Source of the DNA: an uncultured Anaerolineaceae bacterium | GTDB taxonomy: Bacteria; Chloroflexota; Limnocylindria; Limnocylindrales; CSP1-4 | Length of the DNA: 64,000 bases | Assembly (NCBI GenBank): GCA_964427285.1 | Contig: CAYRTS010000005.1 | Location: 3,646 to 67,645 of the forward strand | Reading direction: 5' to 3' | Notes under the pieces: generated by a model | Databases searched by the model: none | What the model was told of the DNA's origin: nothing | What the model saw: the letters and a program-made list of their open reading frames with translations, nothing else | Made by a program: the position numbers and the translations under genes | In this document: positions 43,678 through 47,857 of the stretch, piece after piece | How the letters are laid out: each line of letters begins with the position of its first letter | Position numbering within the stretch: position 1 is the stretch's first letter

Positions 43678-44372
43678 GCCACCTCCCCCGCCTGGCTGGT
43701 GATCCCGCGCGGGAGCGTCACATATTCCGGCACCAACCCGGCCAGGTCGTCCACATCGTCGACCCGAAGGCGCGCGGCGCCCAACGACAGTAGCGCTGCC
43801 CCGAGCCGGCCGCGGGCCGCCTCGCCAAGCTCGATGGCGTCCTCCGGGGCCCGACCGGCCAGGTCGACCGCGATCAAGTGCTCATCGGCGGCGAGCGCGG
43901 GCTCATCGCCACCGGCCAGCAATTTGGGGCGGCCGCCGCGACGGACCAGGATTCGGTCGGATGGTCCGGCGGGCAGGAGCAGCACGGGTCGTCCGTCGCC
44001 GTCGCTGTCGCCGTCGGGAGAGCTGGCCAGCAGCGCCTCGGCCGTGGAGATTCCGACGATCGGCAGACCGAGTCCATGCGCCAGCCCCTTGGCGGTCGCC
44101 ATCCCGACGCGCAGCCCGGTGAAGGCGCCGGGTCCGATGCCGACCACGATCGCGGTCAGCCTTGAACGCCGGACGTTCAGCTCGGCGAGGAACCGACTGG
44201 TCGTGGCCAGCAGCGTTTCGCCATGGCGGTAGCCGGCCTCCCAGCTGGCGATTCCCTCGACCTGCCCATCCGCTGACCCGATCGCCACGACGATCCGGGT
44301 CGTCGCGGTGTCCATCGCCAGGATCGCCCGCCGGCGGCCCTCGCGAGCCGAGCTGGTGCGCCCGCCCGTCAT
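43656..44372 (-). CDS. tsaB: tRNA threonylcarbamoyladenosine biosynthesis protein TsaB
   Basis: LAMDTAT and GIGPGAFTGLRVG. Confidence 0.93.
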   Translation of the reverse strand: MTGGRTSSAREGRRRAILAMDTATTRIVVAIGSADGQVEGIASWEAGYRHGETLLATTSRFLAELNVRRSRLTAIVVGIGPGAFTGLRVGMATAKGLAHGLGLPIVGISTAEALLASSPDGDSDGDGRPVLLLPAGPSDRILVRRGGRPKLLAGGDEPALAADEHLIAVDLAGRAPEDAIELGEAARGRLGAALLSLGAARLRVDDVDDLAGLVPEYVTLPRGITSQAGEVAWSRDPR

Positions 44373-44845
44373 GGGATCGCGTCCAGGTAGCGTCGGAGTG
44401 CCGGCGTACCCGCGCGGACCGTGATGACCCGTCGCTCGTCAGCGGCGCCGTCGATCCGGACGTCGAGGCGATTGACGGGCAACGCCGCACGCATCCTGTC
44501 TGGCCACTCCACGACCGTGACCCCGACGCTCTGCCGATCATCGATCAGGCCGCCGGCCAGGGCATCGGTCGCCTCGGCGAGCCGGTACAGATCGAGGTGG
44601 AAGAGCGGCAGGCGACCGACATACTCGGCCATCAGGATGTAGCTCGGTGACACGATCGTGTCGGTCACGCCAAGTCCGGCCCCAAAGGCCTTGGCCAGGT
44701 GCGTCTTGCCCGCGCCCAGGTCGCCCCACAGGCAGATCAGGTCACCCGGCTGGGCCGCAGCCGCCAGCGCCAGGCCGAGCGCAGCAGTGGCCGCCGGATC
44801 GACAGCCTCGATGCGACGCTCGGGGACCGTGCCCGCTGCCTTCAA
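44369..44845 (-). CDS. tsaE: tRNA threonylcarbamoyladenosine biosynthesis ATPase TsaE
   Basis: GDLGAGKT, SPSY, HLDLYRL and VVEWP. Start estimated at TTG 44845, 1 nt after the upstream stop. Confidence 0.92.
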   Translation of the reverse strand: MKAAGTVPERRIEAVDPAATAALGLALAAAAQPGDLICLWGDLGAGKTHLAKAFGAGLGVTDTIVSPSYILMAEYVGRLPLFHLDLYRLAEATDALAGGLIDDRQSVGVTVVEWPDRMRAALPVNRLDVRIDGAADERRVITVRAGTPALRRYLDAIP

Positions 44846-44846
44846 T

Positions 44847-45839
44847 TCAAGCGAACCGTTCGAGGTCACCGAGTGGAACGGCGACCACGCTTCCATCGGC
44901 CAACCGGACGAGACACGCCTCGAGGTCCGTGCCTCCGCCAAATCGACGCGGCCCGATGGCCTCGACAAACCGGCCCTCGCGACCGGCGTGTACACCTGCT
45001 CGAACACGGACGAGATCGACCGGCGGCGTGGGGACGATGAGCCCGGGGACGTCGAAGACCAGCATCGGCGGATCCGCGACGATCGCGACCTCGTGCCCGG
45101 ACAGGGCGCCGAGCAGGGCCAGCACGGCTCCGGCCAGGGGCCGCCGGACGGCACCGTCGAGGACCAGAACAGCGAACGATGGCAGGCGATGGAGGGCGGA
45201 GCGCTGACGAGCCTCCGAGGCTAGGAAATCACGCCGTTCCTTGCTCGACAGGGCGTTGACGACGACACCGCGCACGCCCATCGCCCGGGCCCGGGTCAGC
45301 GTCTCAGCATCCACCCTCGATCCAACCACCAGGATCGTCCCGGCGGCGTTGACGTCGAGGCCACCGGCGCGCAACTCCCGTTCCGTGCCTCCGCGCAGCC
45401 GGCCGCGGGTTGGCCCGCCGAGCGCCACGATCCCGGGCAGGCCCCGGCCAGCCGCCCGCACCGTAATCGAGGAGCCCGCGCGCACGTCGCGCACAATCCC
45501 GGCGCACGGCGTTTCCAGCGGGTCACTGAGCGCTCCTCCGGCCACCCGCCAGCGACCCCGCCAGGCAAACAGGAACTCGCCACCTTCAAACCGTCCGTCA
45601 CGTCGATTGGCCAGTCCCGGCCAGCGCCCGCCGGGCTCGGGATCGAGCCGGTTGGAAACGTTGATCTCCTCAAGACCGGGGTCGCGCAGCCGCTCGGCGA
45701 TCGGCGCCCCCACGACCACCGTTTCGCCCGCTGCGACCAGCGCATGATCCCCCGGCGTGAGGCGAAACCTGACGTCGACGGGCTCCACGATCAGCGATCG
45801 CGCGGGCACAAGTCCGACGTTGGAGGCGGCACTCGTCAT
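44847..45839 (-). CDS. Hypothetical protein, partner of the GlmL-like gene
   Basis: Translationally coupled (TGATG). Hybrid-barrel-like N-terminus (VAAGETVVVG..ETPCAGIV), alpha/beta middle, SH3/KOW-like C-terminus. Confidence 0.7.
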   Translation of the reverse strand: MTSAASNVGLVPARSLIVEPVDVRFRLTPGDHALVAAGETVVVGAPIAERLRDPGLEEINVSNRLDPEPGGRWPGLANRRDGRFEGGEFLFAWRGRWRVAGGALSDPLETPCAGIVRDVRAGSSITVRAAGRGLPGIVALGGPTRGRLRGGTERELRAGGLDVNAAGTILVVGSRVDAETLTRARAMGVRGVVVNALSSKERRDFLASEARQRSALHRLPSFAVLVLDGAVRRPLAGAVLALLGALSGHEVAIVADPPMLVFDVPGLIVPTPPVDLVRVRAGVHAGREGRFVEAIGPRRFGGGTDLEACLVRLADGSVVAVPLGDLERFA

Positions 45840-47473
45840 CAAGCGGCCCCCACACGGACCGCAGTTCCCCACGTCTCGAGGAGATCGTGGCGCAGGTCAG
45901 CCCGATCCGGGAGCTTGAGTGGCACGCCGCGCAGGTCCACGACCAGGCCGACCAGGCCGCCGGTGACGTCAATCGCGAAATGTCGACCGCGACCGCCCAG
46001 CCGAACCGCGTCATGAAACCGGAATTCCGCAACTGAGGACGCGCCGGGGGCCAGCCAGATCGACGCGAGGCCCCCCGGCTCCAGGTTGACCAGGTCCACC
46101 TTGCCGTCGCGGGCGCGGTCACCTTCGTCGCCAGTGTGGTTGCCGTGGAGCACGAGCGTGCCCGGGTTTCGGTCTTGACGCTGTCCGGCGGGCATGACCA
46201 CCGTCCCGAGCGGCAGCAGCACGTCGTCGAGGAGGTCGGCCACGATCGCGCGGCGCTCCCGCAGGTCCGCGATGGATCCAAGTGGAGCGAGCAGCCGAGC
46301 ATGGTCCATTCCTATCTGGACCACCCCGTGGCGTCGCAGCACGTCGATGATGGCCAACAAGGCCGAAGCCGGCGATGCCCCCGACCAGACGCCACCGGTC
46401 GCGATCAGCAGATCGGCAGCGGGTCGCTCGATCCATTCCGGCGTTGCCTGGTCGAGGAGGCTCAGAGCCGAGCGCACGGCCGCCAACCGCAGCCGAACCC
46501 CGTCGCCGGCAGCATCCGCCCACGGCGCGATCCTGAGCTCACGAAGTCGATCGCGCAGTCGGTGTCGGTCGGTCGTCCCGGGGGACCAATCGGCCACACG
46601 ATCGACGACCTCGTCATCGGGTTCGGCCGGAGCCAGCCCGGCGGTCGGCACGACTGCCAGATCCATCCCGGTCGCGACGGACGAATCGGTCGGCCAGGCC
46701 GCCGCCCGGGTCGCCCCGTCGAAGCCGATGTCGACGATGTCAATGCGCCGATCGAGGAGGTCGGACAGCGCGTTCGCAGCTCCGCCGAGCGTGCGGCGCG
46801 CGTCGTCACGAGGCAGGGCGAGATCGGTGAGTACCTCGCGCAGAGCGCCGCCCCGCGGGCCGCCTGACGCCGCCGATGCGAGCAGCAGCGGCGCCGGCCG
46901 ACGACCTGACTCACCGAAGGCACCCAGCTGGATCGCCATGCCGCCTGCCAGAACAACCGGTATGTCCGGTCGGCGTGCCGCCGCGGCGGCCACCAGCGCA
47001 CCGAGTTCACCCAGCGCGCGCCGCTCGTCCGCCGCGGGCGGCTCGCCCGCACCGGCGAGGATCCCGTCCACGCCGGGGTCCAGCAGGATCGTGGACATTT
47101 GCAATGGATCGACGGCTTCGGCACTGGCAGCCGAGGTTCGCCAGCCGCTGCGGGCGGCGGCTGCGACGAGTGGAGCGAGCGCTCGTTCTGATCCGGCGAT
47201 CACCGCCAGACGCGGGGCCGGGTGACTCGTGACTTCGACCTTCGGGATTTCGTCCGGGGGCGTGCGATCGAGACCCAGTGCAACCGCGATGGATGGGTCC
47301 GCTGCGATAACCCGCTCAACGAGGAGCGCGACGAGGGCGGCCGGGTCACTGCCGATCGGCAGGCAGAGGGAGCCGATCAGCCGCCAGCGGCTCCCGACTC
47401 GGCCCACCAGGGCGGTCGCGATCGTGGCGGCACCGGTGTCCTGGGTGAAGAACGCTCTGGGCGCGGTTGTCAC
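45839..47473 (-). CDS. Divergent GlmL/MutL (glutamate mutase L)-like ASKHA-fold protein
   Basis: FFTQDTGAATIATAL..RWRLIG, RIDIVDIGFDG, DLLIATGGV..LLAIIDVL and LGTVV resemble the GlmL family layout. GTG start follows a TACGAT box. Family call is from memory, not a search. Confidence 0.55.
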   Translation of the reverse strand: MTTAPRAFFTQDTGAATIATALVGRVGSRWRLIGSLCLPIGSDPAALVALLVERVIAADPSIAVALGLDRTPPDEIPKVEVTSHPAPRLAVIAGSERALAPLVAAAARSGWRTSAASAEAVDPLQMSTILLDPGVDGILAGAGEPPAADERRALGELGALVAAAAARRPDIPVVLAGGMAIQLGAFGESGRRPAPLLLASAASGGPRGGALREVLTDLALPRDDARRTLGGAANALSDLLDRRIDIVDIGFDGATRAAAWPTDSSVATGMDLAVVPTAGLAPAEPDDEVVDRVADWSPGTTDRHRLRDRLRELRIAPWADAAGDGVRLRLAAVRSALSLLDQATPEWIERPAADLLIATGGVWSGASPASALLAIIDVLRRHGVVQIGMDHARLLAPLGSIADLRERRAIVADLLDDVLLPLGTVVMPAGQRQDRNPGTLVLHGNHTGDEGDRARDGKVDLVNLEPGGLASIWLAPGASSVAEFRFHDAVRLGGRGRHFAIDVTGGLVGLVVDLRGVPLKLPDRADLRHDLLETWGTAVRVGAA

Positions 47474-47560: not shown

Positions 47561-47857
47561 TCAGGCGTCCCAGCTGACCTCGTCGTCGGTCTGCTCCTCG
47601 AGGCGGGCGATCAGCAGCTCGATGCCGGTGTCGTCGGCCAGGATCTCGCTGACCGAGCTGAGTTCGCCGCCGAACATGCTGCGCAACATGGGATCGAAGA
47701 GCAGCATCGCGTTGGCGCCGAGGGCGCGATACGGGCGGCTCGCCTCCAGGAAGTGGACCGCAGGTCCGCTCATCCCCCGCAGTTCGATCTCGCGGGCGAC
47801 CTGCTCGACCAGCTCGTCGCGCTGCTCTTCGCTCGGTTCGTACGGGCCTCTGTTCAT
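47561..47857 (-). CDS. Hypothetical 98-aa acidic helical protein
   Basis: Coupled (ATGA) to the macrodomain gene. Coding-like composition. Confidence 0.7.
   Translation of the reverse strand: MNRGPYEPSEEQRDELVEQVAREIELRGMSGPAVHFLEASRPYRALGANAMLLFDPMLRSMFGGELSSVSEILADDTGIELLIARLEEQTDDEVSWDA

Follow-up and report, generated by a model that had tools for sequence, protein, structure and literature searches.

A putative soluble remnant of an ASKHA-plus-membrane-protein cassette between alr and tsaE in an uncultured Chloroflexota bacterium

Two coupled genes, here called A and B, lie between alr and tsaE in a 64,000-nucleotide stretch of DNA (the window, from contig CAYRTS010000005.1 of assembly GCA_964427285.1) of an uncultured bacterium of the class Candidatus Limnocylindria, and are preceded by a small gene, orf98. 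A reading of this DNA made earlier from its letters alone (the sequence-only reading) had described A and B as an orphan two-component module, inserted at this site as a free-standing pair. This description did not survive comparison with related loci, as the upstream orf98 also belongs to the unit and the trio corresponds to parts of a cassette of seven genes. On the basis of sequence comparison, the three genes of the window are probably a reduced and ATPase-impaired derivative of a system that consists of an ASKHA protein and membrane proteins. The interpretation that we favour, with a probability of about 0.6, is that M0 (orf98), A and B are what remains, in soluble form, of a cassette that also encoded four membrane proteins, and that in this remnant the complex has been kept, ATP cycling has been lost or altered and a scaffold or regulatory role is left. 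The module is located on the minus strand (coordinates are positions of the window throughout):

Gene A, 45839-47473, minus strand, 544 amino acids, GTG start, interpreted as a divergent GlmL/MutL-type ASKHA protein
Gene B, 44847-45839, minus strand, 330 amino acids, ATG start, partner of A
orf98 (M0), 47561-47857, minus strand, 98 amino acids, small acidic soluble protein corresponding to the first cassette gene
TACGAT box, 47485-47480, minus strand, 6 nt 5' of the GTG of gene A

The loci and genomes that were compared carry L and G codes, respectively. The window's family, f1, is represented by 23 species-level genomes from 11 genera and f3 is a sister family of the same class, with L043 as its representative locus, whereas counts at the level of the phylum refer to 401 Chloroflexota genomes. 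In other Chloroflexota the genes are arranged in the order M0-M1-M2-M3-M4-A-B, where the genes upstream of A encode:

M0, a small soluble protein of ~81 amino acids
M1, a DUF6754 (PF20539) protein with two helices
M2, a six-helix protein of ~205 amino acids
M3, a larger protein that in many cases begins with a zinc ribbon, has LPxW[LM] repeats and ends in a membrane-anchored domain
M4, a six-helix protein of ~215 amino acids

The M1-M4 families recur upstream of A in the loci L035, L037, L039 and L044. In f3, L043 has the genes alr, M0, M1 (DUF6754), M2, M3, M4, A, B and tsaE, which is the full cassette at the chromosomal site of the window. M3-M4-A-B was found in all seven f3 loci, whereas the f1 loci have M0-A-B. 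A hidden Markov model (HMM) of M0, built from L043, L039 and L035, matched orf98 alone among the 32,219 six-frame open reading frames of the genome (E 1.2e-8), and BLASTP of orf98 against the M0 of L043 gave an E-value of 1e-5. M0 was detected directly upstream of A in 21 of the 23 f1 loci with the HMM and in the other two by pairwise alignment. Judged from these alignments and the gene order, orf98, A and B are orthologues of the first and the last two genes of the cassette. None of M1-M4 is present between M0 and A at the window locus, and none was found in the genome by HMM and phmmer searches that included the sister-family proteins as queries; the same searches do find M0 and A. DUF6754 was absent from all 23 f1 genomes, whereas it occurs in 15 f3 genomes and in 92/401 genomes of the phylum, usually at a few kb from A. 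The simplest history is that M1-M4 were deleted in the f1 ancestor, which placed M0 beside A.

Some cassette loci show additional features. The proteins encoded upstream of A at L036:5339-6826, L038:9773-11839, L042:9569-11356 and L035:9587-12205 start with a zinc ribbon and contain many (S/A)xxLIDxxxLPxW(L/M)R repeats, which lie in a low-complexity region of considerable length. For L035 and L039 this repeat protein has a membrane-anchored alpha/beta domain at its C-terminus (M3). At L043:12405-14459 a single frame of 684 codons matches both an NnrD-type dehydratase and alanine racemase, perhaps as a gene fusion or because the frame reads through two neighbouring genes. On L004, a metagenome contig of 6.4 kb, alr is followed directly by A, the start of which overlaps the alr stop, and then by B; no macro-domain gene, M0 or membrane genes lie in between, and this A has the canonical phosphate-1 motif DRGSAWTK.

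The sequence-only reading had also called A GlmL-like, an assignment that family searches with the single sequence did not recover. Gene A did not match any Pfam or NCBIfam model, even at E<=1, including NF040745, TIGR01319 and NF040744 of NCBIfam; it was not matched in a scan of the whole genome with PF13941 (gathering threshold 27 bits). PDB sequence searches with gene A were empty, and single-sequence searches of the PDB returned no useful match. The family around A is large: a profile of 29 members reached 835 cluster representatives, and, of the full-length representatives in the best 150 listed, the most distant one (P0391) scored 23 bits on PF13941. A profile of 25 diverse A representatives matched 201 of the 401 Chloroflexota genomes. 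When ten distant relatives of A were scanned with PF13941, eight scored 73.6-266.8 bits (E down to 4.5e-79), L040 was weaker with 42.1 bits and L041 showed no match. The A protein of the sister family scored 73.6 bits. The f1 profile of A was aligned by hhalign with eight PF13941-matching Chloroflexota proteins, of which seven score 97.8-266.8 bits on this model and the eighth, L040, 42.1 bits. This alignment ran from end to end over 519 columns with a probability of 99.75% and an E-value of 2.9e-27. Because the f1 profile aligns over its full length with PF13941-matching relatives, gene A belongs, as far as sequence comparison can tell, to the GlmL/MutL branch of ASKHA proteins, within which it is strongly diverged, and the earlier assignment is borne out.

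A Foldseek search of the PDB with the AlphaFold2 model of gene A gave BiP, Hsc70, DnaK, ROK kinases, Ppx/GppA and FtsA at E-values of 4e-4 to 1e-2. For the insert, residues ~85-200, high-probability matches were to flavodoxin, CheY and dehydroquinase-type folds. A C-terminal beta-rich extension continues past the 450-position PF13941 model and is common to the canonical Chloroflexota relatives. It is here that the signature GGxxGxxxDxRxxPLxLP, the best conserved part of A, was found, which is kept in every lineage examined. The canonical Chloroflexota relatives themselves score 27-98 bits on NF040745 (cut-off 475 bits) and 64-66 bits on NF040744, the Or-4 model (cut-off 600 bits).

The motifs of gene A that were compared with those of its relatives are:

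Phosphate-1 equivalent DTGAATIA, residues 12-19, 47417-47440, minus strand
Insert loop GAGEPPAADER, residues 141-151, 47021-47053, minus strand, in place of the GGxDG of relatives
Phosphate-2 equivalent DIGFDGATR, residues 248-256, 46706-46732, minus strand
Adenosine-motif equivalent ATGGVWSGAS, residues 358-367, 46373-46402, minus strand, GG kept
C-terminal signature GGLVGLVVDLRGVPLKLP, residues 505-522, 45908-45961, minus strand, pattern GGxxGxxxDxRxxPLxLP

The two phosphate motifs that had been singled out from the sequence, DTGAATIA and DIGFDGAT, are both present, the latter within DIGFDGATR. At phosphate-1 canonical relatives have DxGSxxT[KR] and f3 has DxGSAWTK, whereas all 23 f1 genomes have DxG[ATS]A[TS]x[AS], in which the Lys/Arg is gone. 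At phosphate-2 the canonical DxG[GA]xxTT and the DxGAxxA[TS] of f3 correspond to [DE][IV]Gxx[GA]xR in f1, so that the Thr-Thr is missing in all 23 f1 genomes and a new conserved Arg is present. The loop in the insert domain reads GGxDG in canonical relatives, GGFD in f3 and GAxDPPxADER in f1, and G141, P145, A148, D149, E150 and R152 of gene A are invariant in the family alignment. The adenosine motif has GG in canonical relatives and in f1, and GR in f3. Comparison with canonical and f3 relatives thus confirms the erosion of the ATP motifs, which, as judged from these alignments, is a real feature of the whole of f1 and coincides with the loss of the membrane genes. The notion of A as a pseudo-ATPase scaffold is drawn from this loss of motifs, and we put it forward as an inference.

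Gene B did not match Pfam. Its family is nevertheless connected to the partners of the canonical A proteins, as the f1 B family aligned with them by hhalign at 97.2% (E 3.5e-11). The B profile matched 228/401 Chloroflexota genomes, mostly adjoining A, and a B homologue was present directly after A in 7/9 loci from other Chloroflexota families and in all loci of the class. The view of B as the constant partner of A was thus confirmed. Like A, B has lost a motif of its relatives:

LVLDGAVRR in gene B, residues 225-233, 45141-45167, minus strand, at the site of the [ED]G[FLYI]G motif of relatives

Canonical and sister-family partners have TEGFG, TDGFG or LEGYG at this site, whereas the window and its relative L003 have LDGAV. 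The sequence-only reading had proposed a hybrid-barrel-like start and an SH3/KOW-like end for B. This is reasonable, but the matches are weak and were obtained at the level of the family, with no match for B itself. On the KOW model (PF00467, cut-off 22.3) the B homologues of L036 and L042 scored 22.6 and 20.2 bits, respectively, and three B homologues gave sub-threshold scores of 12-17 bits on RnfC_N (PF13375, cut-off 25.6). The B-family profile matched the KOW motifs of Spt5 and uL24 among PDB sequences (E 1.2e-4 to 1e-2) and, over residues ~188-275 of B, the N-domain of a short asparaginase (E 2e-4), which sets the [ED]GFG region of B against the HGTDTM stretch of asparaginase. These family matches give weak support to a layout in which B starts with a barrel-sandwich-like domain, has an alpha/beta domain in the middle and ends in a KOW/SH3-like one.

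In some genomes A and B are not adjacent. In L037 and L044 (family f14) and in G263 and G231, A has a C-terminal tail of ~100-200 amino acids and no adjoining B; the B homologue lies megabases away (in G263 at 3.38 Mb, while A is at 0.23 Mb). Each of G025, G037 and G049 (family f22) gives two matches to the A profile, and in G025 and G049 DUF6754 is strongly matched too, but B was not detected in any of the three, which may represent a form of the cassette that lacks the partner.

All three genes have been kept in f1, and the frames of A and B are open in 23/23 species. A and B have hundreds of homologues in the databases, all named 'hypothetical' and all lacking a precomputed Pfam domain, from organisms named as Candidatus Limnocylindrales and Chloroflexota. 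In the family alignments A has a mean column identity of 73% and ~130 invariant columns, and B one of 77% and ~120 invariant columns; orf98 is 56-80% identical among f1 loci. NG86 ratios of nonsynonymous to synonymous substitutions (dN/dS) between the window and five f1 genomes were 0.2-0.5, values that are indicative, with dS at ~1 or above for A and B and therefore near saturation. In L024-L027, which represent genus g4 of f1, gene A contains an Ala/Pro-rich low-complexity insertion after approximately profile position 180-220, which breaks the profile match in two pieces within a single open frame of 623-663 codons.

On the minus strand the genes follow the order glmS, acpS, nnrD, alr, macro-domain gene, orf98, A, B, tsaE, tsaB, rimI, tsaD, rsmA, ispE, ridA. 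The start of orf98 overlaps the macro-domain gene (ATGA), a gap of 87 bp separates orf98 from gene A, and at 45841-45837 the sequence TGATG makes the stop of gene A and the start of gene B overlap by one base. The coordinates and the coupling of the two open reading frames (544 and 330 amino acids) were therefore given correctly before, as was the position of the pair between alr and tsaE-tsaB-rimI-tsaD. The latter is also found in a relative with an A that is 65% identical, which has the order glmS-acpS-nnrD-alr-macro-orf98-A-B-tsaE-tsaB-rimI-tsaD. The neighbour that follows B is:

tsaE, 44369-44845, minus strand, Pfam TsaE at E 9.6e-32, outside the module

Its start is ambiguous, being either a TTG at 44845, 1 nt past the stop of gene B, or an in-frame ATG at 44896, which would give an overlap of 50 nt with B.

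A TACGAT box of its own had been noted for the pair. Of the f1 loci, 19 could be evaluated, and in 16 of them a TA[GC][CG]AT element (mostly GGTAGCAT) precedes the GTG of A by 6-7 nt, in spacers with little conservation elsewhere. A generic scan for sigma-70 promoters and terminators found no site at TACGAT, and the element became apparent through the comparison of loci. A search of the M0-A spacer against Rfam gave no match. The spacing and conservation suggest that the element is probably the -10-like part of an internal promoter that drives a leaderless mRNA. As a TTG in the tsaE frame follows the stop of B after 1 nt, the A-B transcript probably runs on into tsaE-tsaB-rimI-tsaD.

Together these data would fit a mechanism in which the loss of M1-M4 left soluble M0, A and B behind at the alr-tsaE site. 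The three proteins would still form a soluble complex, with the C-terminal GGxxGxxxDxRxxPLxLP domain of A and the DGAV/EGFG loop of B as predicted contact sites. A would no longer cycle ATP in the ancestral way, either as a pseudo-ATPase or with a much altered site, and it would act as a scaffold or regulatory remnant that has ceased to drive a membrane complex. A dedicated promoter would give a leaderless transcript of the trio that probably extends into tsaE-tsaB-rimI-tsaD. As a working guess, the parent cassette has an envelope-associated, ATP-driven membrane function. A bolder version, which we consider rather unlikely, is that M0-A-B is the self-sufficient soluble 'engine' of an undescribed class of ASKHA-driven membrane machines, which in f1 was uncoupled from its membrane module, lost its ATP turnover and took on a second, ATP-independent role, e.g. 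as a regulatory complex that is co-expressed with tsaEBD from the new leaderless promoter.

In the main rival to the remnant interpretation A has kept its ATPase activity, with a phosphate site that is no longer canonical, and the trio does the job of the cassette on another client, which is either soluble or made up of membrane proteins that are unrelated or have diverged beyond recognition. Asp12, Gly14, Gly250 and the GG of the adenosine motif are indeed retained, with the new invariant Arg256 and DPPxADER loop the site could have been rebuilt, the C-terminal signature is unchanged and the three genes are kept in 23/23 species. However, the Lys/Arg of phosphate-1 and the Thr-Thr of phosphate-2 have disappeared from every f1 member in step with M1-M4, the [ED]GFG motif of B has been lost as well, and a candidate membrane partner was not found in the genome searches. 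We therefore regard an active ATPase as possible but doubtful. The same loss of motifs, together with the fast evolution of A and B relative to their neighbours and the low-complexity insertions in genus g4, could also be taken to mean that the genes have no function left and are decaying towards loss. This is very improbable given frames that are intact in 23 species of 11 genera, the many invariant columns of both proteins, dN/dS below 1, a conserved dedicated promoter box and translational coupling that has been retained.

Two further explanations look for the function of the pair elsewhere. It might have been taken over by the operon and assist either the synthesis of threonylcarbamoyladenosine (t6A) by TsaE/B/D or the supply of D-Ala and cell-wall precursors (alr, glmS, glmM, glmU). 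This would agree with the tight coupling of B to tsaE (1-nt gap or overlap), with the order alr...A-B-tsaE that is kept across the class and in L004, and with an internal promoter that would drive tsaEBD too. The link to the t6A genes that had been noted earlier is real as far as position goes, but it is limited to the class Limnocylindria and the unplaced metagenome contig L004: nine loci of other Chloroflexota families were checked and in these unrelated genes flank the pair, and half of the phylum is without the pair. Moreover, the complete cassette with its membrane genes is found between alr and tsaE in f3, so that this position is older than the reduction and tells little about what the pair does. 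A t6A link was for these reasons (a class-specific position that is older than the reduction) rejected as the principal interpretation, and operon takeover appears improbable. Alternatively, A could act, in the manner of GlmL, as a chaperone or reactivase. Its client would then be a B12 enzyme or a radical enzyme from another locus, for instance a KamD-like TIM-barrel protein or methylmalonyl-CoA mutase; GlmL/MutL has been described as a chaperone that takes part in the reactivation of glutamate mutase (PMC4682846). Methylmalonyl-CoA mutase was detected in all 21 genomes tested, and since it is present in every one of them it is uninformative. A PF09043-like gene (lysine 5,6-aminomutase alpha) occurs in 22 of the 23 f1 genomes, but in the phylum PF09043 was found in 35/401 genomes compared with 201/401 for A, and f3 has A-B without PF09043. 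Glutamate mutase E (PF06368) was absent from the window genome and 20 relatives (0/21), and no B12 enzyme is present in the window or the operon, as had been noted from the sequence. The profiling against B12 mutases that had been proposed thus showed no dependence on glutamate or lysine mutases. Furthermore, the KamD-like gene stands alone by a MoaD/MoaE gene with no B12-binding subunit, A and its canonical relatives remain far under the GlmL cut-off (98 vs 475 bits) and that of Or-4, and the ATP motifs that a reactivase needs are those eroded in A. On the phylogenetic profiles and the context of the KamD-like gene the B12-mutase reactivase was rejected; the idea is hardly credible, and we infer that the A-B pair is not one. 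The KamD-like gene itself (contig C29:3-1505 of G000, which is L047, and L048:5886-7565) is a distant and partial PF09043 homologue of ~100-115 bits that covers approximately model positions 12-369 of 508.

Several observations weigh against the interpretation of M0-A-B as a soluble, ATPase-impaired remnant. The structural evidence is limited: the AlphaFold2 model of gene A is of medium confidence (predicted local distance difference test, pLDDT, 68.6; predicted template modelling score, pTM, 0.58), and that of gene B, with a pLDDT of 41.6, is too poor for a structure search, so that B is without a usable model. The fold comparison that had been suggested did return Hsp70, ROK, Ppx and FtsA proteins as top matches, but their template modelling scores are as low as 0.15-0.3. 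The phosphate loops of ASKHA proteins bind mostly via backbone amides and, as A still has Asp12, Gly14, Gly250 and the GG of its adenosine motif, ATP binding may have survived the motif changes. A and B diverge faster than their neighbours (in alignable loci the identity of A is 42-56% vs 54-70% for tsaE), a pattern that relaxed constraint would explain as well as a new function would. Completeness of the genome is 93.6%, and HMMs could miss membrane partners that have diverged strongly. The locus sequence matched DNA runs of sediment metagenomes only, and no RNA runs. Finally, it had been reasoned that a constant association with glutamate or lysine mutases elsewhere in the genome would contradict a target independent of B12. 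No such association exists across the phylum, but the lone KamD-like TIM-barrel gene that accompanies the pair in all but one of the f1 genomes is a caveat.

PF13941 proteins are routinely labelled as helpers of glutamate mutase, whereas in half of the sampled Chloroflexota genomes they are members of a cassette instead, and the window cautions against transferring the annotation 'GlmL'. The natural reduction at one and the same site marks the residues that co-vary with the membrane module, and the soluble version with three proteins (M0, A and B) should ease expression and comparison with the intact version of f3. Full-text searches of the literature found no paper that mentions PF13941 or DUF6754. 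What is new is a reduced variant of a known protein family, in a cassette for which these searches gave no description.

Among known systems, GlmL/MutL (PF13941; NF040745, TIGR01319) belongs to the same branch as A and appears to have the same domain order, with an ASKHA core and an inserted alpha/beta domain. A differs from it by an extra C-terminal beta domain, an obligate partner B, altered phosphate-1 and phosphate-2 motifs and the lack of a glutamate mutase. Or-4, the GlmL-related ornithine degradation protein (NF040744), is a distant relative in the same Pfam family, but A does not match its model and has no ornithine or lysine aminomutase context. TsaB/YeaZ is an ASKHA protein that works without canonical ATPase motifs. 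It is encoded two genes downstream of B and has kept the ASKHA fold as a binding partner or scaffold. YeaZ was among the weak Foldseek matches of the gene A model, and it offers an analogy for A rather than a specific sequence relationship. Another close system is the full cassette of other Chloroflexota, to which A, B and orf98 are orthologous and which in f3 occupies the same chromosomal site. Compared with this cassette the window lacks the four membrane genes, at the locus and in the genome, its ATP-site motifs and the EGFG motif of B have been replaced, and it has acquired a new, putative internal promoter box.

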